From positions 186,001 through 250,000 of the forward strand of contig NW_026855379.1 of the NCBI RefSeq assembly GCF_026571515.1: a stretch of DNA of 64,000 nucleotides. Reading direction: 5' to 3'. The translations under genes were made by a program, and so were the position numbers. Shown here piece after piece: positions 21,315-64,000 of the stretch. Every line of letters begins with the position of its first letter. Within the stretch, counting starts at the first letter, position 1. This stretch comes from Ruditapes philippinarum (taxonomy: Eukaryota). Below the pieces are notes generated by a model. That model made no database searches. It was not told the DNA's origin and worked only from the letters and a program-made list of their open reading frames with translations.

Positions 21315-21531
21315 AAATAATGTATTCATTTCAAATTACGATAGCCCGGTGATAAAATCAAACATTTCGAATTTATATTACTTGATTATCATTATTGTTT
21401 GACCATATCAGTTGAATAAATATACATGTATGTGTAAAGAAACGCGCATCTCAAGCCAAGCTAAAATTAAAGAAAAATTAGTAAGCGTTTTGAAGTATAA
21501 AGTGAATAAATATTATAATTTAATGTTAAAT

Positions 21532-32423: not shown

Positions 32424-32653
32424 GAGCCGCGCCACGACAAAGCCAACACATTGGGTTTGCGACCAGCATGGATCCAGACCAGCATGCGCATCCGCGCAGT
32501 CTGATCAGGATCCATGCTGTTCGCTTACCAACTCTATTGCAAGTGGAGAAACTGACAGCATGAATCCTGATCAGACTGCCTGGATGCACAGGCTGGTCTG
32601 GATCCATGCTGGTCGCAAACGCACTATGTTGGTTTTATTTTGTGACACAGCTC
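32424..32653. mobile_element. Sola2-like MITE copy 9
   Basis: Same family sequence and TIRs. Confidence 0.8.
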
Positions 32654-34998
32654 AAATAATGAAAACATGATAGATAATTGTTGATTGGAATCGCTCTAAC
32701 TTTAAGAAGGATTTGTTCGTATATTTTAGCAGCAAAACGGTAATCAACGATAATCTTTACAATAATATCACGTTTCAACGAAAATGAAATGAATGTTTTA
32801 CAGCTACATACACTATAAATGTGAAAAATGAAAATCCCCCGAAAGTTAATGGAACAAAAAACAAATATTTGAAAATCTTCGACACGATATGACCGGGTCT
32901 GCTCATGAGAGTCGGTGAATAAAACAACACCACTACGCCCTCTCGTGCAGGCTTACGTGGTATTCATTTCTCAACTCCGAAAACTTTGGGGAAAAATGAC
33001 ATCGAAGGAAACAAGTAAAATCAGGAAATCTACACAAACAACAAATAATGGAGACTTTATCATATTGTCTTGTTTTTTGACAATTCGACCCCATAGCACG
33101 CAATCGGAAAGCACGACAATTTAATTGCAAACATATTGTACTCTTCTGTATCATTGCATCTTCTCTTTCTTGTCTGGTCTTTGAGTTTTCGCTTCATTGT
33201 GGCAAAATATCGGAAACGCACCCCTACTCACCCCACCCCCTTATAAAGAAAACAGGAAGAAAATATTTTTGACCTTTTTCATTTTCATTGTACAACATAT
33301 AAAATCGTACTCTTTGTGTCTGTGTGGAGGGATGAAAGTTAAAAACCAAAACAAAACACGAAAACACGCAAAACTATGACTTTCGTCTGGCGAGGAGGTG
33401 ACAATTTGACTAATTTGAAACAATCAGACTGACAAAAACCTTTTTTTTTAATTTTACGAAAGCTTAATCTGCTGATTTTTTTTATATAATGGATTTGACC
33501 AGCTTTGAATTTGATTTGTACAGTTCATTTCAGGTCTAGGGGATATTAATACCAAAATATAGAAGTTGAGTTAGCCTGGTTAAACTGCAATGATATTCAG
33601 GCTGACCTTGATTTGTACTGGTAGCAAAGGCTCGACAGTTTCAGTTTCAGAAGGTAACGTGTTAAAAAAACCTGCTATATTCCTTTTCACACATTTGTAT
33701 ATATAACCTAAGCCTATCTTTGTGAACAAATATGATATAGGTACAGGGTGTCTAGAACGAAATTGTGGTCTATATCAAAGTAACTGCTACACATGTCAAA
33801 TAATGCCAATAAAACACTGTATAAACGCTGTGTTAATCATCACTATAATTAATGTCGTTTTGTCGGAATGACATAAAACATATATGTAAGTACTATCGTA
33901 CAAAGTTCGCTGTAAAGTTGCAATGATTTATAAACGTGATACAGTATCACTATGGACCACATCATAATTATGTGTGCATTTTTATATCGCTATTCATAAT
34001 TTAAGCATTATGCAGATTTAAGTAGCTTTTAAGAGATGATTTTCCAATATAAATACAAAGTACATGAAATATATATAAAACAACAACAAAAAACAACACT
34101 TATCGTAATGTATGTTATTATTATGTTATTCATAAGTGAAACATTAAAGAACTTTTTAATTACGCAATCATTGTTCTTTAAGTGATAATATACAAAAATA
34201 AAACACATTTTATCACACTTAACACGTACAAACACATGCACGTACAAAACACACGTACATACTTTTGCAAAATTAAATAACAATATTCGAATTATAACAA
34301 AAAAAAAGTCGGTCGTGTTTGCTTATATCAAAAACATAACAAGTAAAGTAGATGTATGCATACAACCTTATACCAAATTTTGTTAATGAACTAATGAATG
34401 AAAGATGAAATACATTAGGACTTAGAGGCCTTTATGGTACCTTGGTACATATACAGATTATTTGAACGATGTTCACAAAACATACACTACTTTTTTGTAG
34501 ACTTATCCTGAATCACGTTATCCTTTTGTTATTTTATCAAACGTAAAAATTAGAGCGTTTTTATTCTCTTTTTTATTTAAAAATTATGCATTTCCAAACT
34601 TGCAATATTTGAATTTCAGTTATTAAATGCGGCCTTATGTTTCTTTTTTAGTTTTGGTAGAAAGCTAAATTAGTTCGTAGAATACAATGTAACATTTAAC
34701 AGGAGCCTTTGAGAAAAATATAACAGACGTTTTAGGTTTAGTAAGATTTGAGGAAGCCGAACCATTTCAATATATTGTCGTTGCCTTTGCTTTAAATACT
34801 CAATAAAACAGGTTTACCATATTTGCATATTATTCTGCACACCATTGTCTCTTTAAGATTAACTCGGTACTTATTTATTAAAAGGAATTCATTTTCTGCC
34901 GCAATAAGACTCAAACCGAACAACTTCGTAATTTTGTTACATTTCCCTAGCTTTCATTGCAATAATCAACGAATAAATTGTATTCAAATGCCGCAATA

Positions 34999-38548: not shown

Positions 38549-39290
38549 GAGTCGGTACCAGGGGGCATGGGACTCATATAAGTTACAGGTGGCATGAAAG
38601 ATCTTACGTCGGTGACAGGGGGCATGAAATATCTTGGGTCGGCAACAGAGAGTATGAGAGATCTTAGGTCGGTGACAGGGGGCATGAGAAATCTTGGGTC
38701 GGCGACAGGGAGCATACGGGATCTAATGTCGGTGGCAGGGTGCATGAGAGATCTTAGGTCGGTGACAGAGAGCATGAGAGATCTTAGGTCGGTGACAGGG
38801 GGCATGAGAGATCTTAGGTCGGTGACATGGGGCATGAGAGATCTTGGGTCGGCGACAGGGAGCATACGGGATCTAATGTCGGTGACAGGGAGCATGAGAG
38901 ATCTTAGGTCGGTGACAGAGAGCATGCGAGATCTTAGGTCGGTGACAGGGAGCATGAGAGATCTTAGGTCGGTGACAGGGTGCATGAGAGATCTTAGGTC
39001 GACGACAGGGAGCATGAGAGATCTTAGGTCGGTGACAGAGGGAGAGAGATCTTAGGTCGGTGACAGGGAGCATGAGAGATCTTAGGTCGGCGACAGAGAA
39101 CATGAGAGATCTTAGGTCGGTGACAGACAGCATGAGAGATAATAGGTCGGTGATAGGGAGCATGGGAGATCTTAGGTCGGTGACAGGGAGCATGAGAGAT
39201 CTTAGGTCTGTGGAAGGGGGCATGATAAAGCTTGCACTTTCCACCATCTCTCATGAACAGAATGAAAGAAACCAATTTTAAGATTTCAAC
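38549..39290. repeat. 30-bp minisatellite (~22 units) inside a ttaagccggtgc-family element
   Basis: Unit ttaggtcggtgacagggagcatgagagatc. Confidence 0.93.
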
Positions 39291-43509: not shown

Positions 43510-44687
43510 CAATCGCTATTGTTGCCTGCTTTTAAAATTTGCCCTTTGATGCCTTGTCTGTGATATGCAGGCTTCATAACCTCAGATACCCTTTCAAAAT
43601 TCCATTTTTTTAAGTTATGCTCATTGTTTTCTCTTTTTTTCGGCACACACATTTTTTAAATTGGTGACCATACGCCACATTTGAAATGGCACTTATGTGT
43701 GACATAAAAAGTTCAATGATTATCGCCGTATGAACACATCTGCTGATTAATGTTCATGTTTAAATGTTCAATTGTATCTAAGCCGGTGCAATGGGATGCG
43801 GACGGTATGCTGCACTTCCCAGTACCGTCAATGAACAGGCTCAATCAAACCGCGCATACAACATTTTCAATAAAGTCGCGTCGGGCGTCCTTAAGAGACT
43901 CCGTTTTTTTCTATATTATAGATTTTTTATAACTATAGAACATTTTCATTTTCAACTAGACTTAAACAGTTGCATAAGGGTCACTGTTGCCATAACTATT
44001 ACAAATATCGTAACAAACATGTATCGGTGATTTTCCTGGTTTTGCTCGAGCTTTTAAATAAGCCCGTATTTCAGTTATTTTAAGCCATATTTTACATGAA
44101 GTTACTCGTATAAAGCATTTCAAATGTGAATAAAATTCTTAATCTGTTGACTAAGCACATGATTTTGATATCATTTAAAAGCCAAAGTATAGTTTATACA
44201 AACAGGAATCCCAAGCTAAATTAGAAAATATACTTCATTATTGCATTTACATATTGACCCATACAGAATATGAGAATGATATTTTGCTTCAGATAAATTC
44301 TGTTAGCATTTGTTAGGAGTTCCAAATGTCACTACTTCAATTATCAAATTAATTCCATTATTCATTCTACAAACGATGCCGACTCTAAAGGTTACACTTA
44401 TGTACACAAAGTTCATTACAAATTACACCAGATTATGACGAAGAAAAATTATATGTATAACGATTTTTCGTTGGTATGTCTCGTTCACAACACATGAAGA
44501 GATTCTTGCAAAGATGCATGGGAATGATGTTAAAAATAAGGATATTATTAAGGGATAAGTGCGTTATAAGTATAATCTTTCTAGAAGTTAACAAAATATT
44601 GAATCACTACGCTATTTGAAACAAGTGGCAAACATCGAGGATTTCGCAAAGTTTATTTATTTGTTGATTCTCATATTTTTTTCAAGC

Positions 44688-44869
44688 TACAGAAATACTT
44701 GTGAATTAAGGACAACCAAAGGAGAGACCATACATAGTCTTTATAGGCAAGTGGTCTTTATTGGTAGTGTATTTAATTGTATTTTTATCAATGAAGATTT
44801 GTCAAAGGGTGATCTTCACTAATGGGTGTTATTTATTCAGAGGTGTCTTTCACACAGGTTTAACTGTAC
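44688..44869. mobile_element. Decayed Tc1/mariner-type MITE upstream of each open GPCR (paralogous copies ~50664-50848, ~62324-62509)
   Basis: tacag...ctgta termini with internal gtggtcttta repeats; shared by all three duplicated units. Confidence 0.55.
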
Positions 44870-45388
44870 ATTTCAAGAACTCCAACGATTAATATATATA
44901 AAGTATTCAAGTGTATAAAGTCTTATATGTGTTTGTCTGTGGATTGAAAAATAATTGTTTATATTGTGAATACATAGAATGAAAGAAATTTTGTCAGTAC
45001 ATTTTATTGAAAGCAAATGTCATGCGAAAGATCATTGCATAACCTACTAAAAAGCATTTATTATGTTACTTTATAGTACTCTTGTATATCAGATAACACA
45101 GAAATTCTATGTTACAAATCTTTAAAGAAATAACTATTAGGTTATGAAAACAACTTAATTTTAATGTTTTTTTTTAAATTTCTAATAAACTATTATATCA
45201 GGTATAGCTTTATACACTTTAGGCTCTATTAGCAATTCTTATTTTTACCGAAAGCTCGATAGTATATATTACTTTATTTACAGTTTCAAGTGCAATGGCA
45301 GCCTGACATGCAACAAAGTTGTGAAGAGGATGCGACAATAGATGTTATGATTAGATGATGAAATTAACCGGAAATAGCAACACATTAC

Positions 45389-46363
45389 ATGAAAACTTGT
45401 TCAATTCTTCAGAGAATTTATGCTGCAATGGTGAACGACATTTTACTTCAAACCACATCTCTTCAAATTGTGTTTTTCATATTTTACATTATAGTATTTC
45501 TGGTTGGAATTAGCGGTAACTTGCTAGTCGTTTTTGTTGTCCTTCGAAAGAAGGCAATGCACAGTATAACAAACATTTATATAGCTAATCTAGCTACATC
45601 TGATATTATGATGGGCTTATTTGCTATTCCTTTTACGCCTTTGCAATTTTTTATGAAATCATGGATTTTTGGAGAGTTTTTATGTGCTTTTTTGCCGATG
45701 ACGATGAGTATATTAGTATACGTGTCAACTCTTTCATGTACAGTGATAGCCGTGCTCAGGTATTTTGCCATTGTTTACCCTCTTAAACCAAAAATAGGAC
45801 GATGTACGTGTTTCGTTATCGTAGTTTTCATTTGGTTTTTGTCCATGGCCATTTCATGGCCTTTGGATATTTCAGTAAAAACAATAATTGTGAATGATAC
45901 TGTGCTGTGTGTAGAAAAATGGCCGAAATGGCAGTCTCGACAATTCTTTACTTTTACAAACATCATACTTCAGTATTTGATACCATGCAGTATAATTATA
46001 TACTGTTATGTGAAAATTTCACTGGCATTGGACAGACGTTCAAAGTCTCATGTTGTAAGGAATAGCACAGATTCTGAACGCGAACAAAGAGAAATACAAA
46101 GGAAACGCCGGACTAACAAAATGATGATTTATGTTGTTTCGATATTTGTCGTCTGCTGGATGCCATTGAATCTATTCCATATCATATCAGATTTCCATCA
46201 GACATTTAAATATTCCCCGTACAACAGCCTGATTTTCTTCATAGCCCACCTAGTCGCTATGAGTTCTACAATTTATAATCCATTTATATACGCTTTCATG
46301 AGCGAAAAATTCAGGACTGAATTCAAAGCTTTACTAAGTTGCTGCCTGTTTTGTAAAAACTAA
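45389..46363 (+). CDS. Class A GPCR, sNPF/prolactin-releasing peptide receptor-like, copy 1
   Basis: 7 hydrophobic segments; GN (TM1), TNIYIANLATSD..AIPFTP (TM2), WIFG..C, CWMPLN (TM6), AMSSTIYNPFIYA..EKFR (TM7/H8); single coding exon; true start may be 45428. Confidence 0.93.
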   Translation: MKTCSILQRIYAAMVNDILLQTTSLQIVFFIFYIIVFLVGISGNLLVVFVVLRKKAMHSITNIYIANLATSDIMMGLFAIPFTPLQFFMKSWIFGEFLCAFLPMTMSILVYVSTLSCTVIAVLRYFAIVYPLKPKIGRCTCFVIVVFIWFLSMAISWPLDISVKTIIVNDTVLCVEKWPKWQSRQFFTFTNIILQYLIPCSIIIYCYVKISLALDRRSKSHVVRNSTDSEREQREIQRKRRTNKMMIYVVSIFVVCWMPLNLFHIISDFHQTFKYSPYNSLIFFIAHLVAMSSTIYNPFIYAFMSEKFRTEFKALLSCCLFCKN

Positions 46364-49278
46364 AAACCCGATGTAAATATATTGTAGGATGGACTTTCAA
46401 TTTAGTGCCACGTAATTTAGGATTTATAATCAAAAGTTTATTATTTCATGTAAGTAAACTGTGTCATACATTTCATATAGTTGTTTATTTTTTCCATATC
46501 CATACAAAATGACACTTCTTTAGCGAAAGAACGGAATGATTACAGATTTATTTGTAAGAATTTCTTTTTTATCTCTTTTACTTTCTGCTCTTATGTCATG
46601 GTGGTTGATGCCTGGAAACTTCTAGATAAAGACACAAAAGATTCATAAAAATGGATCAATCAAATACATTCCAGTCGACTGTAATCTTTATAATTTCTAA
46701 TTCAGTATCTGAAAAAAAAACACAAAAAAAAACATTAACCAAATAAAAACAAAAAAAAAACAAAAAAAAAAAAAAAACGAAAAAGTTTTTAAAATATTTC
46801 CGACAATTTCTGGTGCTCTGACCTTTAATTTATGTTTCATATTCTATTGATTGGTTTATGCTAAATGATGCAAGTAAACTTAGACAGATTCCAGATAATC
46901 GCAAACCTAAAAGATACTAAATTGCGTATTTCGCACGTGACGTCAAGTTAAAGACATTGTCCGAACGTGTCGGATATCGGCCTGCAATATTTTACCTTTC
47001 TGGAAAGGATGTTTCGTTCTGTTGGCAAAAATTATGACTATAGAAGGGATTATGAGTATTTGACGTGTGTTTAATAATTTGATAATTTTAAAACACACCT
47101 CATCTCTCATAATCTAAATATGTAGTCACCGTGTCCTTATCATTTTCACAAATGTCCATAATATGTGAACACAAGCCCGAGTCAACACAAAAATGGCAAC
47201 TACATGTTTTGATTAGCAAGGTCCATAAAGGTCTATTAGAATAACATTTAAAGGTAACACTTCTTTAATTATTTTTGTTGTTCAGTCTAGATTTCAGAAA
47301 TGAGAGTAATCTTAATATATTCTCGATATAATATTCTAACAAAAAAGTACTAGTTACGAAATTTCCATAAAGAGACCGGTTTAATATGTTTAGATAATTG
47401 TTTTGATTTCAATAAATCATGCCAACTGTCCAGCGCAGTGTTATTTTAGTGCGCTCTGGTCCCTGCCAAGACTAAGCGTTCCCTAGTAATTAATGATCCC
47501 CATATTTAGAAAATCAAATTTTACTTTTATTTTCTTAGAGAGCGCTTCCTGCATTTTGGTTGGTCAAAACTGTCCCTAGAAATAATAACTATATGCAAAT
47601 GCAAGATTTGCCGCCTTTCCAAGGCGCACTTGAAAATAAAATTTTGGAATGTGAAGTACGAATTTTGTGTATTTTTATTTATTAAGTTTCGGGCACAGAT
47701 ACGATTGTTTAGTAATTTTATTTTTGTTTTTTATTTGCCTTCGTTCGGGAAAATTATTGTTTAAATAATTTTTGTTCTAAAATAATTACATTTATTATTG
47801 TTAAGGTAAATACGTTAACAATTTTATGTTAAGATAGATAAAACTGTATCCTAGTTAAGATTTTGATGTAAAGGTAAATAATCTGCAATTCTATCAATTA
47901 ATAAATTTTTAAACATTACTAGCAGCAGGATTCCCACAGTACATGTATTTGTTAAGGATGAATTATATATGTGACTTGTTTATTTGTTAGTATGTATGTT
48001 GTTTTATTTGTTATTAATGAAAGTATAAATGTTTAACTTTCAGATAACCGCTATATACGCTATCTACGCTATATACGTTGTGCGATACACTATATACTCC
48101 TTAGACTATGTGTTGTTTCTGGAATAAAAGTGGAAATGCATCATTTTGTTGCCCAAACTTAGTGAAGCTGCCCATTACGGCCGTATCGGAGTGTCTTTGT
48201 AATTGGTAACAGTTGAAGTGAACACCCGTATTAACGTGTTCTGTCTCAGCCACCCACGTAATCTATCAGTAGTTGTTATACAGTTATTGAATATCCGTTG
48301 TGTTCCCCACAGAAGTGTTTAATTAGAGCATTAGAACAACGGTAGAATTGCATTTAATTAACAATGTTTTCTAGATATACCAATTGTTATAACCTCCAGA
48401 CGTGACTGCTTTTCTCAAATTGGTTACAGACAAAGGCCATTTCAAACGCCAGGATTTTTATTTACGAATCAATACTGTCTTGGTTATTTTATTGAATACA
48501 ACTGCATTAGGTGTATTTATTGTAATGTTCTTTCAATTTTCATGGACCAACTATTTTTGACCGTCTCTATTTTGCCTCCCGTTTCCTTTGCCTTAATAAA
48601 ACTACTGTTTACTTAAAACTCAAATCTTTCAAATATCAGTTTCCAACATAATGAACCTTTCCAGTGTTTACAGTTTTATGCAAATTGGCTGACTCTCTGT
48701 CCAATTGCTACACTGGAATAATACATGGTCACTGGTTGGCCTGGTTTACACAAAAGAACATACGAGCTGAGCTATATTTTTCACTGCTAATTACCGGAAA
48801 TGTCCATTTAGAGATCAACAAAGAAAAGAGAATTAAAAGACATTAACAGTCAGTTCGCATTATTAAACAAGTCTGAGTTGCAACCCTACATTTAGCATGA
48901 TATTGTTAAGATTGTTCTAATATTGTTACTCTTTGATGAGTTAATGTGAGACATATACCTTATTTATGGACGTGCGCTTCATTTAGCTTCCTCAGATTTT
49001 TGTTCTCCTTTAAAGAAACAGATTAACAATATAATCATATAATTCATTTGATTAAATTGGATGATTTCCTTACAATTTGATGTTATCGTTTATAAATTAA
49101 AAAAAATATGTGGTAAAAAGGCCTGTTTATTCATGTGAATTTTGCCAAAAATATTTAGAAATATTTTGCTTTTTAAAGTAAAACAGTATATTTACGAAAT
49201 TGATATTTTATTAGTGTTACAAACCTATGTGTTATTCGTTTCATTACCCTGAATTTTTCAACTCAATCTAATATCTAA

Positions 49279-49634
49279 TCTGATATAATGATGGGCTTAT
49301 TTGCTATTCCTTTTACGCCTTGGCAATTTTTTATGAAATCATGGATTTTTGGAGAGTTTTTATGTGCTTTACTGCCGATGATGATGTGTATATTAGTATA
49401 CGTGTAGTCATAGCCGTGCTCAGATATTTTGCCACTGTTTACCCTCTAAAATCAAAAATGGGACGATGTACATGTTTCGTTATCGTAATTTTCATTTGGT
49501 GTTTGTCCAGCGCCATTTCATGGCCTTTGGGATATTTCAGTAAAACAATAATTGTGAATGATACTGTGCTGTGTGTAGAAAAATGGCCGAAAAGGCAGTC
49601 TCGACAATTCTTTACTTTTACAAACATCATACTT
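49279..49634 (+). pseudogene. GPCR pseudogene A (TM2-TM5 fragment)
   Basis: Starts at SDIMMG; frameshifts and a deletion in TM3; 3' end cut at the palindrome-family insertion. Confidence 0.9.
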
Positions 49635-49905
49635 ATTTGCACCCTGGTGTGATTTTCGCGTGTAAAATATCTTTTTGTTGAATAGTCAAAAAGTGAACAT
49701 CCGTTTTCAACGGAAGTAATTGCAATGTAAATAATTATGTGTGAAACTGGAACATGCAGACGATTTAAGGATTATTTAACAATTTTAATCAGTGAAACGT
49801 TAAAGATATGGTGGACTACGCCCTCGTGATATAATTCTTCGCATCCGAACTCCAAACAGTGATGTTATTGAGCAATAAAATCACAGTTTGGGATATATTA
49901 TTTTT
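49635..49905. mobile_element. Partial palindromic hairpin element at the pseudogene A breakpoint
   Basis: 49816-49903 matches the right half of 29073-29245. Confidence 0.7.
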
Positions 49906-50404
49906 TAATTATACTGACCCCTCATCGCATATAATGAACTGGTTATTCATTGTTAACTTATCGGACTATAAAATTTATATTTTGCTTCTGATTCATTTCT
50001 GATTAGCATTTGTTAGCATTTTCAAATGTTACTATATCAGTTATCAAATTAATTCCATTATTCATTTATGAATAGATGCCGATTTTAAAGGTTACACTTG
50101 TGTTAAAGTCACTGAATACATATCCCACTGCAAATAATTCTAAACTATGACGTAGATAAATAACATATATAACGATGTCTCATTGCTTCAGTTTATTGGT
50201 ATGTCCCGTGAACAACATACGAAGAGATTCTTGCAAAGAAACATTAGATTTTTTTAAAAATAAGGATATATTATTAAAGGGATAAGTATGTTATAAGTAT
50301 ACTCTTTTGTTTTTTTAGACGAAAATGTGTTTAATGATAATGTTGTGTATGATGGTCAGCTTGGGTTCCAGATAACCCCTTAGTAAGCTTCATAAGCATA
50401 TCAA

Positions 50405-50495
50405 TTATGATTGGTTGTTATGATTATAAAATTCTGGGTGTGATCTGATTAGCCAATCACGTGATATTATTAGATACTATTTATAAATAGTCATA
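50405..50495 (+). promoter_or_regulatory. Candidate promoter motifs (two CCAAT boxes, CACGTG, TATAAA) upstream of GPCR copy 2; paralogous at ~62065-62155
   Basis: tgattggt..gccaatcacgtga..tttataaatag; motif evidence only. Confidence 0.3.
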
Positions 50496-51392
50496 CATGC
50501 CAAACATTTCGGCTATGAGTAAAGGTTGAACACGACTAAATTAAGGCTTATACGAAGCGTAAAGAAAATGTTGAAGAACTATGCGTTTAAAATCAAGTGG
50601 CAAAGATCGAGGACTTCTCAAATTTTATTCATTTGTTGATTCTCAGCGTTTTTCTTTGAAGCAACAGTCAAATTGTGTATTTGAATAAAGACCGTCAAAA
50701 GGAGAGACCTTACATAGCCTTTGCAGACAGGTGGTCTTTATTCGGAGTGTATTTAATTGTATTTTAAATAATGAAGGTTTGTCAAAACGTGGTCTTCATT
50801 TAAAGGGTGGTTTTATTCGCATATGTCTTTAATAATGGTTAAACTGTAAACTTCAAGAACCAACGATGAATATGATACATAGTATTCAAGTGTATAAAGC
50901 TATAAATTTGATGTCTGTTAAAAAATAGTTGTTTATTTTGTGAATAGCAACAATGAAAGAAACTTGTCAGTATATTTTATTGAAAGCAAATAGGTCATGT
51001 GTGAGATCTAAAATAGCAGCAGACTATTCTGTTTCGGGACATTTTATTCTGTTATATTACAGTACTATTGAATTGCACATTTTTGACTAATATTGAAACT
51101 CTACAATTCTTTCAAGAAACTAATGTTAGGTTATGAGAACTACTTAATTTTACAGTTTTTATTTTTTTTGTAAATATTCTATCAGATATAGTTTTGTACA
51201 CTTTTAGATTTACTAGCATCTTTTTTAACCGTTATTCAAAAGCATATATTACTTTATTTATATTTTTCAAGTTTAATGGCAGTCTGACACGCAACAGATT
51301 GTGATGAAGATGCGACGATAATTAACTGATGAAATAACCCGCAAAGAACAACACATTACACGAAAACTTGTTCAATTCTTCAGAGGACTTAA

Positions 51393-52358
51393 ATGAGTAC
51401 ATTAAATGCAGCAATGGTGTACGACGACATTTTACTTCAAACCACAGCTCTTCAAATTGTGTTCATCATATTATACATTATAGTATTTCTGGTTGGAATA
51501 AGCGGTAACTTGCTAGTCGTTTTTGTTGTCCTTCGAAAGAAGGCAATGCACAGTATAACAAACATATATATAGCTAATCTAGCTACATCTGATATTATGA
51601 TGGGCTTATTTGCTATTCCTGTTACGTCTTTGCATTTTTTTGTGAAATCATGGATTTTTGGAGAGTTTTTATGTACTTTATTTCCGATGACGATGAGTAT
51701 ATTAGTATACGTGTCAACTCTTTCATGTACAGTGATAGCCGTGCTCAGGTATTTTGCCATTGTTTACCCTCTTAAACCAAAAATAGGACGATGTACGTGT
51801 TTCGTTATCGTAGTTTTCATTTGGTTTTTGTTCATGGCCATTTCATGGCCTTTGGGATATTTCAGTAAAACAATAATTGTGAATGATACTGTGCTGTGTG
51901 TAGAAAAATGGCCGAAATGGCAGGCTCGACAATTCTTTACTTTAACAAACATCATACTTCAGTATTTGATACCATGCAGTATAATTATATACTGTTATGT
52001 GAAAATTTCACTGGCATTGGACAGACGTTCAAAGTCTCATGTTGTAAGGAATAGCACAGATTCTGAACGCGAACAAAGAGAAATACAAAGGAAACGCCGG
52101 ACTAACAAAATGATGATTTATGTTGTTACGATATTTGTCGTTTGCTGGATGCCATTGAATCTGTTCCATATCATATCAGATTTCCATCAGACATTTGCAT
52201 ATTCCCCGTACTATAGTCTGATTTTCTTCATAACCCACCTTGTCGCTATGAGTTCTACAATGTATAATCCATTTATATACGCTTTCATGAGCGAAAAATT
52301 CAAGACTGAATTCAAAGATTTACTGAGGTGTCACCTGTTTTGTAAAAACCCGATGTAA
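51393..52358 (+). CDS. Class A GPCR, sNPF/PrRP receptor-like, copy 2
   Basis: 321-aa intact ORF, near-identical to copy 1. Confidence 0.93.
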   Translation: MSTLNAAMVYDDILLQTTALQIVFIILYIIVFLVGISGNLLVVFVVLRKKAMHSITNIYIANLATSDIMMGLFAIPVTSLHFFVKSWIFGEFLCTLFPMTMSILVYVSTLSCTVIAVLRYFAIVYPLKPKIGRCTCFVIVVFIWFLFMAISWPLGYFSKTIIVNDTVLCVEKWPKWQARQFFTLTNIILQYLIPCSIIIYCYVKISLALDRRSKSHVVRNSTDSEREQREIQRKRRTNKMMIYVVTIFVVCWMPLNLFHIISDFHQTFAYSPYYSLIFFITHLVAMSSTMYNPFIYAFMSEKFKTEFKDLLRCHLFCKNPM

Positions 52359-52713
52359 ATATATTGTAGGATGGACTTTCAATTTAGTGCCTAATTATTT
52401 AGGATTTATAATCAAAAGTTTATTATTTCATGTAAGTAAACTGTGTCATTCATTTCATATTTGTTTTCTATTTTTCATATCCATACAAGATATCACTTCT
52501 TTAGCGAAAGAACGGAATGATTACACATGTACATATTTATTTGTAAGAATTTCTTTTTTATCTCTTTTATTTTCTGCTCTTATGTCATTATGGTTGATGC
52601 CTGGAAACTTCTAGATGAAGACACAAAATATTCATAAAAATGGATCAATCAAATACATTCGAGTCGACTGTAATCTTTATAAATTATATCAAACAGAGCA
52701 AGCAACCTTGCAT

Positions 52714-52858
52714 NNNNNNNNNNNNNNNNNNNNNNNNNNNNNNNNNNNNNNNNNNNNNNNNNNNNNNNNNNNNNNNNNNNNNNNNNNNNNNNNNNNNNNN
52801 NNNNNNNNNNNNNNNNNNNNNNNNNNNNNNNNNNNNNNNNNNNNNNNNNNNNNNNNNN
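52714..52858. other. Assembly gap
   Basis: Run of N. Confidence 0.99.
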
Positions 52859-53902
52859 AGTAACTTAAGCTTGTTCAAAATATTTCCTACAAGTCCGAGT
52901 GCTCTGACCTTTAATTTATGTTACATTTTTTATTGATTGGTTTAGGCTAAGGGATGCAATCAAACTTAGAAAGATTCCATGTAATGGGAAACCTAAAAAA
53001 ACAAGACACGGAAAACCCGACAAAAGTTCAAAGTAGTTTCTGTTGGAAAAAAGAACAAGTCAATCGAAATTGAACATAACAAAATGAAATCCTACGTAAA
53101 AAAGAAGCAATATTGAAATCAATCTCATTTAGTATTTTGTATAAAAAAGGAAAACATGTTATCAAGGTCTTAAAGTGTATTATATGTTAGAATTATGGTA
53201 ATTGCGTAAATAAACCACAATAAGTCACCAAAAGCTATAACAATTAGAAAACAACAACATGACCTTTACTTTTCCTTCCTTTTTACTCATCGTCTATATA
53301 GGACCTTACAAAAAGATACCTGATACCACACAATACTGCTGTTTATGGTATTTCAATATTACATATATTCATATTCTTGTAACATGTAAAACTGTGTTTA
53401 TTGATATTCTTTGTGATAATGTCTATTTTACCTATATTTACACAATAATTTGTTCTGATACAAATGTGACAATTTGTATTTCTTGTCTTTTGTTATAAAA
53501 ACGTTTTGAAATAAATCTGCAATCTCTTATAAGTTCACTTTTTCAGTGTTATCAAGAAAAAACAAAAAAATCAATTGAATCACATATTGGAAAAACGTCT
53601 GTCTGTGCTTCAGAGATTGTTAAAATGGTGTTGATATTCTGAATACATGCAAAGCTAACCACTTTTTTTTCCGTAAGTAATTTATGCAAGAAATCAACCA
53701 CTGTTTTTTTCTAATAACAAGAAATGCTGAATATTTCTTTTGTGAAAAGGGTTTCAAATACCATTTTTCAACTTTTGTATTATTTTGTGTAGTGATAATA
53801 AAAAGTCATTTTAACACCTTATTTTCAGTCAATACTTCATGAATCAATATAGGCTGGAATATACATGTATATTATTAGTTATAAAGATTTTTTACAAGTT
53901 AT

Positions 53903-55536
53903 ATGGCCCTATGTAAACGGTTGTTTGTAAATATAACCCGAGCCGCTAGGCGAGGGTTATATTGCAAACAACCGTTTATATACTACAGTGTTCCGTTTGG
54001 ACAGTCGTGACTTTTAGTCTGTACCCACGATGGTACGATTGTGAAAACGCGATGGCACGATGGTACGATGATGAAAATGCGATGGTACGATGGTGAAATT
54101 GCGATGGTGCGATAGTACGATGGTGAAAACGCGATGTTACATCGCGTTTTCACCATCGTACCATAGTGATTTCACTATCGTACCATCGCGTTTTCACCAT
54201 CGTACCATCGCGCCATCGTGTTTTCATCATCGAGCCAACGCGTTTTCACCGTCGAGTCATCGCGTTTTCACTATCGTACCATCGCGTTTTCACCATCGTA
54301 CCATCGCGCCATCGTGTTTTCATCATCGAGCCAACGCGTTTTCACCATCGAGTCATCGCGTTTTCACCATCGTACCATCGTGTTTTTACCTTCGTACCAT
54401 CGCGCTATCACCATCGTACCATTGGGCTTTCACCATTGTACCATCGCGTTTTCACCATCGTACCATCGCGTTTTCACCATCGTACTATCGCGTTTTTCAC
54501 CATCGCGCCACCGCGTTTTCACCATTGTGCCATCGTCTTCCGGTTGTCATGCGCAATGTTATATTTTTATCAACAATGTATGCCTTCTCATTACTGAACC
54601 CCGCACCCTTTATATTTGTGTATCTTTTAAATCTTTGAATATTTGGAACATGAAATTAACAAAAGGCAATCACTCAAAAATTAAAAAAAAAATGTTGTCA
54701 TCCTTGTGCACTTTACATATAAAGTTTTTAAGTTATATATAAATATAAATATAAATAGATATATTAAATAAAGCAAGAGAAAAAATTCAGACATATATAT
54801 AGCATATACAAATGTATATCCATATATTAAATAGTCGTTGATCTATATACAGTATCACGACATAAATGGAAAATTTAATGTAAAGATAACAGGTTTTATT
54901 ATTTATAACTCAAATTAAATATCAAGTATTCTAAACTTGTTTTTATTATCTACCGTAACAGAATCTGACATCTTTCTGTATGTGTACTGATTATACTGAC
55001 CGAAAGGCGATGGTACGATGGCGCGATGGCACGATGGTGAAAACGCAATGGTACGATGGTGAAAACGCGATGGCACGATGGTGAAAACGCGATGGTACGA
55101 TGGTGAAAACGCGATGGTACGATGATGAAAACGCGATGGTACGATGGTGTAAGCGCAATGGCGCGATTGTGAAAACGCGATAGTACGATGGTGAAAGCAC
55201 GATGGTGAAAACGCAACGGTACGATGGTGAAAGCGCGATGGTACGATGGTGTAAACGCGATGGTACGATGGTGAAAACGCAATGGCACGATTGTGAAAAC
55301 GCGATGGTACGATGGTGAAAGCACGATGGTACGATGGTGAAAACGCGATGGTACGATGGTGAAAGTGCGATGTTACGATGGTGAAAGCGCGATGGTACGA
55401 TGGTGAAAACGCGATGTAACATCACATTTTCACCATCGTACCATCGCGTTTTCACTATCGTACCATCGTTCATCGCGGTAACAGACTAAATTAAAAATCA
55501 CGACTGTCCAAACGGAACACCGTAATATACGGCCAT
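53903..55536. mobile_element. Short palindromic hairpin element (53903-53983 + 55531-55536) interrupted by a nested insertion
   Basis: atggcc.tatgtaaacggttgtttg..aaccc-GA-gcc-GCTA-ggc-GA-gggtt..caaacaaccgtttatatac|ggccat once the insert is removed. Confidence 0.7.
53984..55524. mobile_element. IS3EU-like non-autonomous foldback element with inverted 22-bp arrays
   Basis: TIR tacRgtgttccgtttggacagtcgtga, TAC..GTA termini, 6-bp TSD ATATAC; arrays of gcgatggtacgatggtgaaaac in both orientations. Confidence 0.75.
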
Positions 55537-58500
55537 TTAACCTGTCAGAAATATTTATGACGAATTTATAATACAGCAAGCATCATTTTTAGAGGAATAA
55601 AGCGATATTTCTTTATTAATCGACAACAGCCGCGTATATAAAACTATATAAAAGTCACGATTATCCAATGAAAACCGACGTTACAAACGTGCAGTATTAT
55701 AATATGCACGATCGTACATATCAAAATCATGGTCAACCACATTAGTATAAAAATCGAATTGATATCTTTTTCAAGATACACGAACTTCTATTAGTCAAGC
55801 AAAAGAAATTATCGTAAAAACTTCTGATATACTTGTCATCTGTTACCGTTCATGAACAGGCTCAATCAAACCAAGCCTGCAACATTTTCAATTTTGTCGT
55901 TTTGTACGCTCTTTAGGAATTCCTTATTTCTCTCTATTTTTGCTAGAAAACTTAAAACACGTACGGCTTTTTATCTTGATAGTAACAGATCGTAAATTAG
56001 CCAAAGCTTCTCTTTCAAGGAACAATTTTATTTCATTATTCACTGATGTTTACAAAAAATATATAACTATTAGGCGAAACTACTATTAATGAGTTGTACT
56101 TTACGAGTGTAGCAGGCCATTTTAATCTGAGCATTACTCTTTGCTTGGCATTGATAGGTATACAATGTAAATGCTGTCAAAAACTTGGAATTCGATTTAG
56201 AGAAAGAAACTTGTAATGATAAAAAAACGTACTTCACTTTAAAGTCGTGTTTAATCTTTCAGTTATTCACATACTAGTATACTAGGAATATATTTAAAGG
56301 GAAAAAGAACATTTCTGGACTTGAAATACTTCGACATTGCTAAATATTTGTATACAACTTCATTTGCTAACTTCTTCAAAGTTCTAGATTAATAATATGG
56401 CACTCCTGTTTTTAAATTACATTAAGTGATTTGTGACTGTGTCTTATATTTTGATATGATTTGTCATTAAGTCATTTCTTTTATTCTCTACTCGTATGGT
56501 AAACTGAGTTGAAAAATATGGATAAAAACTACTTCAATGCATCTATTTTAACTGAAAAACGTTTGATAGTTATATATTCTGAATACCACATTTGAATACA
56601 AAGTAAGGGACATTAAATCATGATATCGGAATGCTGTAATTTTCTGAACATCCCAGAATTACTCCAAACTGATAGTTAAATACATGTAAGAAAGTTCATA
56701 AATATGATCGGTGTTTTTCGTTTAACAGCGATCATTCGTCAACCCTTGCATGATTGCGTAAGCTCATTTCACTGACCATTGTGTGACATGTTTCGTCATT
56801 TGATAAGGTCATGTCAATGTTTTCTTCAATCAATTTCAGGGGAAACTTGAATACCATATTATTCGTGATGACGCGTCTTCCTCTAAGACCGTTTATCTCT
56901 GGATGGAAATCTTATTAGAATTTCATGATGACTTCCTGACAGTTCTGTATTTTAATATAAAACTCGTACGATATAAATATGCCGTAAAGAAAAGAGTAGA
57001 ATAAAACATAGTCCATGTAGAACTTCAAAAAGGCAAAATTGAAAATGTTGCAGTCTCGGTTTGATTGAGCCTGTTCATAGACATATGACAGAGGCAAATT
57101 AACAAACACTATACATACAATTTAAACAACGACAGTCCCAAAAGCTCGCTTGATACTTTCATAGAATAAAAACAGGTAGCTTTTTCAAACATGTGCTTAT
57201 TTAAATTCAATATACCTGCAAGATTTCATACAGTTCACAAAGAGTTGAAGCTGTGCATTACAAAGGGAGCGGTGCAAGTCACGACGTCATTCCTACATCA
57301 ACGTGATTCATTGAAATTCTCACTTGACATTCAGGCTATGATTTCATTCAGTTCGACCTTGGTAAATAGCCTGGGCACCCAGCATACAGTTCTGTTCACA
57401 TTCCAAGAATGACTGTCTGTTTTCCGTACTGATCTCTAATCTGTAAGATACTTACACTTTCCTTTCGTCCGAATCGCCTGCAAAACTCCTTTTCAAATTT
57501 GACAAACGCCCGTACCATTTGCAAATCGTGCATGCATATATACATCGTCCGTGTTGCTTTTTTATCATTTTGTTCGTTTCATTACACGCATTACTTGGTG
57601 GTTATATTCAGTTTCTGGTAAACGCCAAATTACGACAATTTTGTTTATTTGAAAGAAACTACGTATGTGTTCTCTAAAATGCAAATTGTGCGTAATTATT
57701 AGAACTTTTGCCCTTAAGCTAACATATGCTTTACTGCTTGACATTTCAATAAGTCTATATGAAACGAGAGTTACATAGGAAGTCACCCTGACCACTATTC
57801 TTCCTATTCAGGCAAATTTATCACTCATTGATACTAAATTGCGTATTTCGCACGGGACGCCAAGTTAAAGACATTGTCCGAACGTGTCGGATATTGGCCT
57901 GCAATATTTTACCTTTCTGGAAAGGATGATTCGTTTTGTTGTAAAAAATCACTATTATAGAAGGAGTTATGAGTATTTGACGTGTGTTTCATAATTTGAT
58001 AATTTTAAAACACAGCTCAACTCTCATAATCTAAATATGTAGTCACCCTGTTCTTATCATTTTCTGACAATTTCACAAATGTCCATAATATGTGAACACA
58101 AGCCCGAGTCAACACAAAAATGGCAACTTCATGTTTTGATTAGCAAGATCCATGTAGGTCTATTAGAATAACATTTAAAGATATTTTTTGTTGTTCAGGC
58201 TAGATTTCAGAAATGAGAGTAATATTAATATATTCTCGATATAATATTCTAACAAAAAAGTACTAGTTTTTAAATTTCCATAAAAATCAGTACATCATTA
58301 GTTCAGTATGAATTAATCCATCAAATGGAGTTTCATAACATTTTCTTTTGCAGACTCGGTTTAGCCCACCGAAGGCATTGGTAAATTCACTCTACGGCAA
58401 ACATAATTGGCATAGAATAAAACTATTGGCATCAACATAAGCGAAAGTCGACAATTAAACGTATCAAAAGTGTTTAATCATGGCATTAGGACAACGGCAG

Positions 58501-59491
58501 AATTGCATAGAATTAACTAATGTTTTCTAGATATACTAGTCGTTATAAGCTCCAGACGTGACTGTTATTCTCAAATTGGTTACAAACAAAGGTCATCTCT
58601 AACGCCAGGATTTCTTATTACGAATCAATACTGTTTTGGTTATTTTATTGAATACAACTGTATTAGGTGTATCTATTGTAATGTTCTTTCATTTTTCATG
58701 AACCAACTATTTTTGACCGTCTCTATTTTGCCTCCCGTTTCCTTGGCCACAATAAAACTACTGTTTACTTAAAACTCAAATTTTTCAAATATCAATTTCC
58801 AACATTATGGACCTTTTCAATGTTTACAGTTTTATGCAAATTGGCTGACTGACTGTCCAATTGCTACACTGGAATAATACATGGTCACTGGTTGACCTGA
58901 TTTACACAACAGAACATACGATTTTTTTTGTAAAATTGTTTCTGAGTAGTTGACCTACAAAAAAAGCTGAACAATTATTTCACTGCTAATTACTGGGAAT
59001 GTCCATTTAGAGATTAACAAAGAATAGAGAATTAAAATATATTAACCGTCAGTTCGCATTATTAAAATAATCGGAATTGCAAACCTACATTTACAATGAT
59101 ATTGTTTACATTGTCCTAATATTGTAACTCTTTGATGAGTTAATTTTGGACATGTACCTTATTTATCGACGTGCGCTTCATTTAGCTTCCTCAGATTTTA
59201 GTTCCCCTTTAAAGAAACAGATTAACAATATAATCAGATAATTCGCTTGATGATTTCCTAACAATTTGATGTTATCGTTTATAAATTAAAAAAAAAAATA
59301 TGTGGTAAAAAGTCCTGTTTATTCATATGGATTTTTCCAAAATTATTTAGAAATATTTTGCTTTTTAATGTAAAACAGTATATTTACGAAATTGATATTT
59401 TATGAGTGTTACAAACCTATGTGTTATTCGTTTCATTACCCTGAACAGATACTGTAATGATCTGAATTTTTCAACTCTATCTAATATCTTA

Positions 59492-60255
59492 TCTGATATT
59501 ATGATGGGCTTACTTGCTATTCCTTTTACGCTTTGGCAATTTTTTATGAAATCATGGATTTTTGGAGAGTTTTTATGTGCTTTATTGCCGATGATGATGT
59601 GTATATAAATATAAGTGTCAACTCTTTCATGTACAGTCATAGCCGTGCTCAGATATTTTGCCATTGTTTACCCTCTTAAACCAAAAATGGGACGATGTAC
59701 ATGTTTCGTTATCGTAGTTTTCATTTGGTTTTTGTCCAGCACCATTTCATGGCCTCTGGGATATTTCAGTAGAACCAAAATTGTGAATGATACTGTGCTG
59801 TGTGTAGAAAAATGGCCGAAATGACAGTCTCGACAATTCTTTACTTTTACAAACATCATACTTCAGTATTTGATACCATGCAGTATAATTATATACTGTT
59901 ACGTGAAAATTTCACTGACTGGCATTGGACAGACGTTCAAAGTCTCATGTTGTAAGGAATAGCACAGTTTCTGAACGCGAACAAAGAGAAATACGAAGGA
60001 AACGCCGGACGAACAAAATGATGATTTATGTTGTTTCGATATTTGTCGTCTGCTGGATGCCATTGAATCTTATGATACAAGAATTCCATCAGACATTTAA
60101 ATATTCCCCGCACTATAGCCTGATTTTCTTCATAGCCCACCTAGTGGCTATGAGATCTACTATATATAATCCATTTATATACGCTTTGCTTTCATGAGCG
60201 AAAAATCAAGACTGAATTCAAAGCTTTACTGAGTTGCTGCCTGTTTTGTAAATAA
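59492..60255 (+). pseudogene. GPCR pseudogene B (TM2 to C-terminus)
   Basis: 5'-truncated at SDIMMG; stops at 59606, 59612 and 59822; small-duplication frameshifts at ~59915 and ~60187. Confidence 0.92.
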
Positions 60256-63054
60256 AAATACGTTGGATTTATTGAAGGATGAACTTTTTATTTCAATAAG
60301 TGCCAGATAATTTAAGATTAAATCAAATTAGATTATTTCATGTCAGCAAAACTGTGTCATAAACTTAGTAATTATGGTTTTCTTTATTTTTTATATCCAT
60401 TAATACATCCATATAGATGTTTCTTTAGCGAAAGAACAGAATGCTTACATTGGTGGCTGATTTGCGTCATTCTTGCTCTCACCCTGCAACCCCGCCAAGC
60501 GGAAAGTCGAGAATTAACAAGTTAGAAAGGCGGGCGCGGAACTAAAACATACTAATAATTGGGGCGCGGGACGAAGTTTAATAAATAAAACACCGCCCTT
60601 TGATAATAAAACTTCGCCCGCGCCCCCGATAAATAACGTGTTTTCGCCCAGAGACTCCGCCAAACGAAAAGTCAAGAATCAGCGGGGGCGCCGAGCGAAT
60701 ACACGCTATAAGCGGAGGCGGGATAGGCGGGGCTGTATATTATAGTATATACTGTTCTGATATAATAGGGACAATTTGTGCTGTTAAAAGCGTTTATAAA
60801 TAGATATGCTATCTTTTTGTAGTCCACTTTTTTCATTGTTATGACAGGTCTGTCCTTTTAAGATTAAAAAAAAAACATCCTTTGACTTACATATTCAAAA
60901 ACATATGTTTGTATTTCAGAGTCTGTTGAAACTGTCTGAATACATACAAAACACAACATTTTATTAACAAATCATTTATGAAAGAAATCAACAACTCTTT
61001 TTTAATTACAAAAAATAATTGCTAAATTTCACGTTCTAATTAAGCCGGTGCAACGAAGCGTGGACGGTAACTTGCACTCCCCATTACTGTCAATAAACAG
61101 TAATAGTCAAACCGAGCATGCAATGTTTTCAATATTGTCACTTTTGGCGTTCTTTAGGGATTCTGATTTTCTCTATTTAATGCGTGTATTTTTCTCAGAA
61201 GTTACGGGGCATTTTCAACCAGATTTACAAGCATTTTCAATGGACTTAAGTCCTTTTTTAAATCAAACATCCTACTCAAAACATTTGCATAAGACACTTC
61301 ATTGTTGCCATAAATATTACAAATGTCATTTCAAACATGGAAATGAAATTTTCCTAGGTTTGCTAGAGCTTTTAAGTTAACACTTTTAACTGAGCGTGTT
61401 TTCCGGCCAAATTTACATGAAGTAAGGTCCTATTATTAAATTTGAAACTCTAAATCGTTTGACTACGCACATGGCTTTAATATAAATTGAGAGTAAATTA
61501 TTAAAGCAGAAACAAGAATCATGAGCTGAATTAGAAAATATATTTATTAATGCATATTATATTGACCCACCATTGCATATAATGAACTGGTTAACTTATC
61601 GGACTATAATTTATATTTTGCTTCTGATTCATTTCTGATTAGCATTTGTTAGCATTTTCAAATGTTACTGTATCAGTTATCAAATTAATTCCATTATTCA
61701 TTTATGAATAGATGCCGATTCTAAAGGTTACATTTATGTTAAAGTAACTGAACACATATCTCACTGCCAATAACTCTAAACTATGACGTAGATAAATAAC
61801 ATATATAACGATGTCTCATTGCTTCAGTTTGTTGGTATGTCCCGTGAACAACATACGAAGAGATTCTTGCAAAGAAACATTAGAATAATATTAAAAATAA
61901 GGATACATTATTAAGGGGATAAGTATGTTATAAGTTTACTCTTTTGTTTTTCTAGTCGAAAATGTGTTTAATGATAAGACAAACAATGTGTTGTGTATGA
62001 TGGTCAGCTTGGAACTGACTATTTATACCAAATAACCCCTTAGTAAAGCTTCATAAGCATATCAATTATGATTGGTTGGTATGATTATAAAATTCTGGGT
62101 GTGATCGGATTAATCAGTCACGTGATATTATTAGATACTATTTATAAATAGTAATACATGCCAAACATTCCGGCTATGAGAAAAGGTTGAACACGACTAA
62201 ATTAAGGCTTATACGAAGCGTAAAGAAAATGTTGAAGAACTATGCGTTTTAAATCAAGTGGCAAAGATCGAGGACTTCTCAAATTTTATTTATTTGTTGA
62301 TTCTCAGCGTTTTTCTTTGAAGCAACAGTCAAATTGTGTATTTGAATAAAAACCATCAAAAGGAGAGACCTTACATAGCCCTTGCTGACAGGTGGTCTTT
62401 ATTCGAAGTGTATTTAATTGTATTTTAAATAATGAAGGTATGTCAAAACGTGATCTTCATTTAAAGGGTGGTTTTATTCGCATATGTCTTTAATAAAGGT
62501 TTAACTGTAAACCTTAAGAACCAACGATGAATATGATACATAGCATTCAAGTGTATAAAGCTATAAATTTGTTGTCTGTTGAAAAATAGTTGTTTATTTT
62601 GTGAATAGCTAGAATGAAAGAAACTTGTCAGTATATTTTATTGAAAGCAAATAGGTCATGTAAGAGATCTAAAATAGCAGCAGACTATTCTGTTTCTGGA
62701 TATTTTATTATGTTACAGTACTTTTGAATTGCATATTTTTGACAAATATTGAAACTCTATGATACAATTCTTTCAAGAAACTAATGTTAGGTTATGAGAA
62801 CTACTTAATTTTACAGTTTTTATTTTTTTTGTAAATATTTGTATCAGATATAGCTTTGTACACTTTCAGATTTACTAGCATCTTTTTTAACCGTTATTCA
62901 AAAGCAAATATTACTTTATTTATATTTTTCAAGTTTAATGGCAGTCTGACACGCAACAGATTGTGATGAAGATGCGACGATAATTAATTGATGAAATAAC
63001 CCGCAAAGAAAAACACATTACACGAAAACTTGTTCAATTCTTCAGAGGACTTAA

Positions 63055-64000
63055 ATGAGTACATTAAATGCAGCAATGGTGTACGACGACATTTTACTTC
63101 AAACCACATCTCTTCAAATTGTGTTCATCATATTTTACATTATAGTATTTCTGCTTGGAATAAGCGGTAACTTGCTAGTCGTTTATGTTGTCCTTCGAAA
63201 GAAGGCAATGCAAAGTACAACAAACATTAATATAGCTAATTTAGCTACATCTGATATTATGATGGGCTTATTTGCTATTCCTTTTACGCCTTTGACATTT
63301 TTTATGGAATCATGGATTTTTGGAGAGTTTTTATGTGCTTTATTGCCGATGACGATGTGTATATTAGTATACGTGTCAACTCTTTCATGTACAGTCATAG
63401 CCGTGCTCAGATATTTTGCCATTGTTTACCCCCTTAAACCAAAAATAGGACGATGTACGTGTTTCGTTATCGTAGTTTTCATTTGGACTTTGTCCACTGC
63501 CATTTCATGGCCTCTGGGATATTTCAGAAAAACAATAATTGTGAATGATACTGTGATATGTCGAAAAACATGGCCGAATGAGCAGTCTCGGCAATCCTTT
63601 ACTTTTACAAACATGATACTTCAGTATTTGATACCATGCAGTATAATTATATACTGTTACGTGCAAATTTCACTGGCATTGGACAGACGTTCAAAGTCTC
63701 GTGTTGTAAGGAATAGCACAGATTCTGAACGCGAACAAAGAGAAATACAAAGGAAACGCCGGACGAACAAAATGATGATTTATGTTGTTACGATATTTGT
63801 CGTCTGCTGGATGCCATTGAATCTGTTTCATATCATATCAGATTTCCATCAGACATACTCTCCGTACTATAGCCTGATTTTCTTCATAGCCCACCTAGTG
63901 GCTATGAGTTCTACAATATATAATCCATTTATATACGCTTTCATGAGCGAAAAATTCAAGACTGAATTCAAAGATTTACTGAGGTGTCAACAGTTTTGTG
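63055..64000 (+). CDS. Class A GPCR, sNPF/PrRP receptor-like, copy 3 (open to window end; absent from ORF track because its stop lies outside)
   Basis: Hand translation from ATG 63055 (MSTLNAAMVYDDILLQ...) has no stop through ...EKFKTEFKDLLRCQQFC; in-frame 6-nt deletion in ECL3. Confidence 0.92.
   Translation, partial: MSTLNAAMVYDDILLQTTSLQIVFIIFYIIVFLLGISGNLLVVYVVLRKKAMQSTTNINIANLATSDIMMGLFAIPFTPLTFFMESWIFGEFLCALLPMTMCILVYVSTLSCTVIAVLRYFAIVYPLKPKIGRCTCFVIVVFIWTLSTAISWPLGYFRKTIIVNDTVICRKTWPNEQSRQSFTFTNMILQYLIPCSIIIYCYVQISLALDRRSKSRVVRNSTDSEREQREIQRKRRTNKMMIYVVTIFVVCWMPLNLFHIISDFHQTYSPYYSLIFFIAHLVAMSSTIYNPFIYAFMSEKFKTEFKDLLRCQQFC

Follow-up and report, generated by a model that had tools for sequence, protein, structure and literature searches.

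The 64,000-nucleotide stretch of the Ruditapes philippinarum genome analyzed here (contig NW_026855379.1, positions 186,001 to 250,000; hereafter the window) carries, from position 45389 to its end, a tandem array of genes for G-protein-coupled receptors (GPCRs), derived from the receptor for short neuropeptide F (sNPF) and LFRFamide peptides. The array is an altered form of the sNPF receptor (sNPFR): it lacks the aspartate of the DRY motif, it lacks the C-terminal tail, it has been amplified in tandem, and it is probably paralleled in mussels. Without D3.49 and a phosphorylatable C-tail, these duplicates would, in the reading that we tentatively favor, signal in an altered manner while probably still binding RFamide peptides. 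A preliminary description of this DNA had interpreted the array as a neuropeptide receptor behaving like a sensory or immune repertoire, and it overlooked the main feature: D3.49 and the C-tail have been lost, and similar losses recur in other bivalves.

DRY-less, tail-less receptors within the sNPF/LFRFamide receptor clade

A tBLASTn search with the three open frames identified five copies in the window, all on the forward strand, and no further match there; they are listed here together with the tract that precedes the ATG of copy A:

45389..46363, forward strand: copy A, open, single exon, sNPFR-derived GPCR; 324 amino acids (aa) from 45389, annotated as 311 aa from 45428
45400..45412, forward strand: splice-acceptor-like pyrimidine tract followed by CAG, just 5' of the conserved ATG of copy A; also found before B and C
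49278..49634, forward strand: psi1, fragment from mid-transmembrane helix 2 (TM2) to mid-TM5; both ends are missing, and a 16-bp deletion shifts the frame
51393..52358, forward strand: copy B, open, 321 aa; LRY; 25-residue tail
59491..60250, forward strand: psi2, 5' breakpoint the same as in psi1; in-frame stops and indels
63055..64000 (window end), forward strand: copy C, open, annotated as 316 aa; LRY; E45.52 changed to K; two-codon deletion in extracellular loop 3 (ECL3)

Copies A, B and C contain no coding intron and match Pfam 7tm_1 over 260 of its 260 positions. Neither B nor C conserves the ATG that copy A has at 45389, and the annotated start of A is at 45428. The annotated protein of copy C (P0002) ends one residue beyond the window, and psi2 has a RefSeq model of its own, the 164-aa 'substance-P receptor-like' protein P0266. 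Pairwise DNA identity among the five coding copies is 90.9–94.5%. A fourth intact paralogue of R. philippinarum, P0003, is encoded outside the window and is 87–88% identical to A, B and C; these three are annotated on a contig of 319,926 bp, and P0003 and P0266 belong to a contig of that length too.

In all four intact array proteins, DRY is replaced by LRY; D3.49 is found in 66 of the 66 parent-like sequences of a 97-row alignment. The array proteins end 22–25 residues after NPxxY (23 in A, 25 in B), and about 60 residues of a Ser/Thr-rich tail that canonical receptors conserve from clams to annelids are gone. Nine short proteins, including those of other bivalves described below, have tails of 15–33 residues with 0–2 Ser/Thr, versus 84–89 residues with 10–16 Ser/Thr in six canonical receptors. 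The class A core is kept throughout (N1.50, D2.50, R3.50, W4.50, P5.50, CWxP, NPxxY and the TM3-ECL2 cysteines), and the AlphaFold model of copy B shows an intact seven-helix fold with helix 8 (pLDDT 91.7), its closest structure being NPY Y2 (TM-score 0.84).

The canonical sNPF receptor of the species, P0008 (394 aa), is retained on another contig. It is 57% identical to copy A and 54–58% identical to the array copies overall; identity of the array to the sNPFR clade is 52–60%. Orthologue clusters of P0008 include the oyster (C. gigas) LFRF-amide receptor and the abalone (H. discus hannai) sNPFR, whose clades are sisters in the array tree. In a tree of 29 selected proteins, the array and a short form from Mercenaria nest among imparidentian sNPFRs (support 100/99), and short forms from Mytilus sit among pteriomorph parents (support 96/92); the tree contained no NPFR, luqin or tachykinin outgroups, and the family assignment rests on this nesting and on the 52–60% clade identity. 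The stem branch of the array is long, at 1.8 changes per column under a mixture model. The joining of the Mercenaria form with the array is a long-branch join, with each alone still falling among venerid-like parents, and a quick tree weakly rejected a join of the array to the Ruditapes parent only (p=0.03). The array is an offshoot inside the bivalve sNPF/LFRFamide receptor clade with the canonical gene retained: the sNPF/PrRP-type assignment and the offshoot status proposed earlier are both sustained, the offshoot evolves fast beside P0008, and the array does not hold the only sNPF receptors of the species. What sets the array apart from the molluscan sNPF/LFRFamide receptors is LRY, the loss of the conserved tail residues, a short N-terminus and the multiple copies.

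Like the array, the sNPFR orthologue L001, one of 29 metagenome loci, has a single coding exon: in what appears to be genomic DNA, the frame of this bivalve-type gene, 85% identical to P0008, runs without a break, and an acceptor-like site precedes its ATG. Because L001 is also intronless, the single coding exon of the array was probably inherited. The frame of L002, an annelid-like locus on a 12.8-kb contig, is unbroken as well, while several other annelid-like loci have introns. Abalone NPF receptors are reported as intronless (PMC8536682), and the available part of another report (PMC7314547) holds nothing on receptor introns. The acceptor-like tract before the array ATGs is likely the end of an intron in the 5' untranslated region; reads of four of the 24 listed runs, mapped to 43700–46700 at 88% likeness, contained no splice joint or transcript start there.

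A retrogene origin had been raised since two partial parent models of M. galloprovincialis end at one TM6 position, and was dropped given the unbroken frames of L001 and L002. The two models (P0155 and P0157) may point to a mussel intron or an annotation artefact. Two 'isoforms' of the canonical receptor of Dreissena polymorpha (P0127 and P0162) differ mainly in TM6-ECL3-TM7, through either alternative exons or a tandem duplicate.

Short forms in other bivalves

The altered DRY motif and the short tail are also found together in Mercenaria (P0029, VRY), in four Mytilus species (IRY) and in P0209 (VRY). These short paralogues share with the array an aliphatic residue at 3.49, F3.58L, a changed R3.61 and a truncated tail; they are uncharacterized and, where named at all, annotated only as 'NPY receptor-like'. 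No additional sNPFR form with an aliphatic residue before RY was found among the 120 shorter relatives of the parent that were listed. Unlike in Ruditapes, no array was seen in Mercenaria or Mytilus, for which a single short-form cluster in each species was found, and the Mytilus forms group with Mytilus parents. Both in Mercenaria and in the four Mytilus species, the sequence that carries the short gene is exactly as long as the one that carries the parent, a match suggesting that the two genes are on the same chromosome.

The hypothesis that all short forms share one origin was rejected (approximately unbiased test on eight short proteins, p=0.013; 0 of 200 bootstrap trees), the short-form group having been defined after the motifs were seen. 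The altered copies probably arose separately in mussels, as judged from these trees. At 167 parent-conserved columns, the array has changed 48 and Mytilus 42; 24 of these are common to both versus 12 expected (p=6e-6), five of them to the same residue. The overlap fits parallel remodeling, a shared tolerance of sites, or an old paralogue masked by conversion from the parent. An annelid-like sNPFR offshoot (P0089, P0094 and P0153) with NRY, T2.39F, R3.61K and tails of 21–38 residues is a possible further parallel. We found no account of this array or of DRY-less bivalve sNPFRs in a literature search that extended to few subscription journals.

Tandem duplications of bivalve neuropeptide receptors have precedents. 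Duplicates of the buccalin and AST-C receptors are likewise lineage-specific and in some cases strongly diverged; unlike the array, they are described as conserving DRY and NPxxY (PMC8514136).

A repeat unit of one gene and one pseudogene

Self-alignment matches 46913–47371 to 57830–58284, 48310–49634 to 58465–59863, and 49908–52343 to 61556–63999, and resolves a repeat unit that combines a single intact gene with a spacer and a single 5'-truncated pseudogene. The remaining features of the array are:

45864..45877, forward strand: compensated frameshift in copy A; one base lost and one gained, both in short homopolymers, with four residues changed at the top of TM4
46913..49277, no strand: spacer of repeat unit 1, homologous to 57830–59490; substitution identity 93.5% and 90.9% in two blocks
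52714..52858, no strand: assembly gap of 145 N between the A-psi1-B and psi2-C segments
53000..57829, no strand: unit-2-only DNA of ~4.8 kb, absent from unit 1; includes inverted arms of a 22-bp satellite

The two pseudogenes start at the same TM2 codon and have ~1 kb of upstream DNA in common, so that they represent one pseudogenization event that was then duplicated and not two deaths. The layout given in the preliminary description, of five paralogues (three open and two pseudogenes), each open copy with a single coding exon, generated by nested tandem duplications and gene birth and death and running past the window end, is confirmed and refined by the identification of the gene-plus-pseudogene unit. 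Copy B is a gene-conversion mosaic: its upstream region is C-like, with 156 of 187 variable sites grouping B with C, and its mid-coding region is A-like at 24 of 37 sites, clustered significantly within the coding region (permutation p=0.003). Gene conversion therefore acts alongside birth and death. Upstream, B and C are 95.6% identical, and A and B diverge by ~23%.

The assembly itself could mislead if psi1-B and psi2-C were two haplotypes of one segment that scaffolding had placed in tandem on either side of the gap; there would then be fewer true loci, an outcome compatible with any functional reading. We regard such a partial artefact as very unlikely. The gap does lie near the unit junction, the upstream regions of B and C are closely alike, and no read or contig spans the array, coverage being confined to 43700–46700; against this, a heterozygosity of 1.0–1.7% is reported for R. 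philippinarum (PMC6831834), whereas matching blocks differ by 4–9% plus indels; a single segment free of gaps holds A, psi1 and B, with strongly diverged A and B upstream regions; and a fourth copy exists. On the smaller scale, the frameshift of copy A is either a genuine change or an assembly error: covering contigs from runs X1 and X16 have the unshifted form, but they differ at 10–11 other letters and may represent other copies.

Within the unit-2-only DNA, the two arms of the 22-bp satellite (54000–54540 and 55000–55530) are inverted in a foldback-like arrangement. A very high-copy short repeat is present at 43780–43914, 55844–55938 and 61041–61176, that is, upstream of A and C and in the unit-2 insertion; its depth is huge in all four sequencing runs, and it is a possible recombination substrate.

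Ligand pocket and selection

The human prolactin-releasing peptide receptor (PrRPR) anchors the RF-amide through 2.57, 2.61, 3.32, 7.39, a hydrophobic pocket, 6.59, 5.38 and 45.52, and an upper sub-pocket comprises 2.64, 45.51, 6.58, 7.31 and 7.35 (PMC11369081). With positions mapped from PrRPR, all four intact copies match the clam parent at 8 of the 13 RF-amide core contacts; the mostly conservative changes are L3.32M, S5.42N, E6.59D and C3.33S, plus E45.52K in C only. The array retains the T2.61, W6.48, N6.52, acidic 6.59, F7.35 and H7.39 of sNPF/LFRFamide receptors, and E45.52 in three of four copies. The upper sub-pocket varies among the copies (2.64 H/Q/T/P; 45.51 V/V/R/E). Overall, the core would be compatible with the binding of RFamides, although its conservation does not exceed background. 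The oyster LFRF-amide receptor (P0182) departs from most molluscan orthologues in having Ser at 6.59 and Gln at 3.32, so that neither an acid at 6.59 nor the usual 3.32 residue is strictly required for LFRFamide activation.

A codon model with two partitions, the extracellular half (outside) and the cytoplasmic half (inside), was fitted under a fixed residue-number rule chosen after the alignment had been viewed. For A, B and C (299 codons), the ratio of non-synonymous to synonymous substitution rates (omega) was 0.92 outside and 0.43 inside (difference p=0.008), the latter below 1 (p=0.009) and the former not distinguishable from it (p=0.78). When psi2 was included (200 codons, best of three trees), omega was 1.65 outside (versus 1, p=0.10) and 0.37 inside (p=0.015). 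The cytoplasmic half, which forms the signaling face, is under purifying selection; the extracellular half undergoes relaxed or possibly diversifying change, and positive selection is not demonstrated.

The preliminary description proposed that the array had been recruited to detect external ligands in the manner of a sensory or immune repertoire; the most plausible such ligands would be RFamide-like peptides of conspecifics or parasites. Variable sites in the four intact proteins (excluding the four shifted codons of copy A) number 35 of 134 outside and 12 of 145 inside, and this extracellular variation, the values of omega outside, the differing upper sub-pocket and the short N-terminus would all suit such a role. 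A trematode has moreover been reported to induce LFRFamide in Lymnaea (PMC4208409). Nevertheless, we consider the proposal unlikely. The asymmetry was ruled out as proof of ligand diversification by a control with four canonical orthologues, which are equally asymmetric (26/140 outside, 2/145 inside), and the three Mytilus short forms show no asymmetry (27/140 and 21/145). Omega outside does not significantly exceed 1, only four intact copies are known, Mercenaria and Mytilus yielded just one short-form cluster per species, and the RF-amide anchor pocket appears largely kept.

The tandem single-exon cluster with pseudogenes is a trait that the array has in common with chemosensory or immune GPCR repertoires, but it does not support such a role here, with L001 intronless, the single exon probably ancestral and tandem neuropeptide-receptor duplicates known from bivalves (PMC8514136). 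Srw/Srsx-type candidate chemoreceptors are described from bivalve tentacles (PMC11682238), and a total of 858 7TM genes, with an expansion of neuropeptide receptors, is reported for R. philippinarum (PMC6831834). The array and the molluscan Srw-type candidates are both class A and peptide-receptor-like; unlike these candidates, the array has 7tm_1 as its best match (~180 bits versus <45 for Srw/Srsx) and descends directly from sNPFR, and weak Srw/Srsx matches occur in canonical sNPFRs too. Molluscan Srw-type candidates are clustered single-exon genes. Taken together, the observation behind the preliminary description is confirmed and its interpretation partly supported.

Expression and the possible redundancy of the copies

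Array expression in the samples examined is low at most. In the RNA run X24, all ten coding bins had a depth of 0.2–6, and of 18 flank bins, counted without two high-copy repeat bins, two held reads. Run X1, whose RNA status is a guess, yielded two contigs identical to A and three with 9–17 differences. Run X16, apparently DNA, gave homologous contigs across the whole of 43700–46700, including variants absent from the window.

It is possible, although we hold it to be on the unlikely side, that the copies are merely relaxed, redundant duplicates with weak or no signaling that drift toward pseudogenes, their frames kept open by crossing-over and conversion and the losses of DRY and tail reflecting the tolerance of a freed copy. 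An overall omega of 0.64 that does not differ from 1 (p=0.10), the very low RNA depth, the pseudogene traveling inside the repeat unit and the conversion detected in copy B all agree with such a fate, as does the 'LOW QUALITY PROTEIN' flag on the M. galloprovincialis short form. Two substitutions common to the short forms, V3.53A and F3.58L, also move toward the general class A consensus. Redundancy accounts poorly for an inside omega significantly below 1 in both fits, for four intact full-length frames persisting on a long stem branch, and for short forms annotated in four Mytilus species and Mercenaria.

A predicted change in signaling

In human PrRPR, T2.39, D3.49 and an Arg in intracellular loop 2 (ICL2) form a network that contacts Gq but not Gi, and R3.50 is needed for both (PMC11369081). 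The ICL2 Arg aligns to 3.61, which has changed together with D3.49 in every derived lineage. With D3.49 and R3.61 changed, R3.50 kept and the tail lost, we infer weaker Gq coupling and poor tail-dependent desensitization; raised basal activity would be possible but not assured. The abalone sNPFR is reported to be activated by LFRFamides via Gi and to internalize, and the oyster receptor to mobilize calcium (PMC9071130). The exchange of Asp3.49 for an aliphatic residue with Arg3.50 kept is reminiscent of KSHV ORF74 (VRY), CXCR2 D138V and CXCR1 D134V, all unrelated chemokine receptors, in which the change activates one receptor and inactivates another (PMC4372616).

Under the favored explanation, the coding exon would have been copied at the DNA level in a venerid ancestor, in common with the Mercenaria VRY form, and the copied receptor then remodeled on its G-protein face. 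Unequal crossing-over would have amplified it in Ruditapes, where relaxed or mildly diversifying change would now alter the outer peptide 'address' sites. [quoted passage not shown]

Several observations weigh against this explanation. Copy C lacks E45.52, and retention of the pocket is no better than background, with 2–4 of 13 pocket sites changed versus 48 of 167 parent-conserved sites; changes at the latter are also spread evenly between outside (16/59) and inside (32/108; p=0.86). On the G-protein face, R3.61 is replaced conservatively by K and T2.39 is kept. The direction of the effect is open, as D3.49V activates CXCR2 and abolishes binding and signaling in CXCR1 (PMC4372616), and Aplysia TKRP receptors are reported to desensitize partly without tail phosphorylation (PMC11365428). 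An omega outside near or above 1 fits drift and new ligands equally. Finally, the X24 signal amounts to about a dozen reads summed over all copies, contamination by paralogous DNA would favor the coding part too, and the RNA run X22 is at background level on the coding region.

An altered DRY and ICL2 could also mark non-signaling decoys or dominant-negative forms, which would bind LFRFamide or dimerize with the canonical receptor and damp it, as in atypical chemokine receptors. In the Mercenaria short form, changes are concentrated inside (27/108 versus 7/59 outside, p=0.047), and CXCR1 with D3.49V is signaling-dead (PMC4372616). We nonetheless find this quite improbable: purifying selection has preserved R3.50, NPxxY and a basic ICL3. 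Uptake by scavenging receptors, moreover, usually depends on a phosphorylatable tail, and the array copies are without one.

Natural receptors without D3.49 and tail, standing beside an intact parent in more than one lineage, provide a comparative test of the DRY aspartate and the tail in RFamide receptors, and the short forms would show how a neuropeptide receptor is rewired after duplication. In oyster and abalone, LFRFamide signaling is linked with feeding, glycogen storage and gametogenesis, so that a tonic variant could be of importance in clam and mussel farming. A bolder version, to which we assign a low probability, is that a non-desensitizing sNPF receptor without DRY and tail has branched off repeatedly in bivalves, on at least two occasions (once in venerid clams, once in mussels), and that the Manila clam has multiplied its own into a small repertoire that is diversifying and reads outside RFamide-type peptides such as conspecific spawning or parasite signals. 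Should the ligands be external, the turn of a neuropeptide receptor to a sensory role would be traceable here in a young case.

Other features of the window

On the forward strand, a 715-codon open exon (2483–4630) is followed by an exon that matches the Pfam ALMS_motif (5853–6002, E 6e-8); together they are probably the 3' end of an ALMS1-like centrosomal gene. Between these exons and the array, no other above-threshold Pfam match was obtained in the 64 of 181 short frames tested. Palindromic, MITE-like elements of ~240 bp, 80–94% alike and in both orientations, lie at 9060–9303, 12978–13194, 20296–20526, 21521–21731, 22825–23081, 24100–24357 and 32423–32660. Minisatellites with periods of 33, 35, 47, 80 and 30 occupy 17074–17856, 25506–26167, 26699–27126, 30310–31038 and 38585–39225, respectively.

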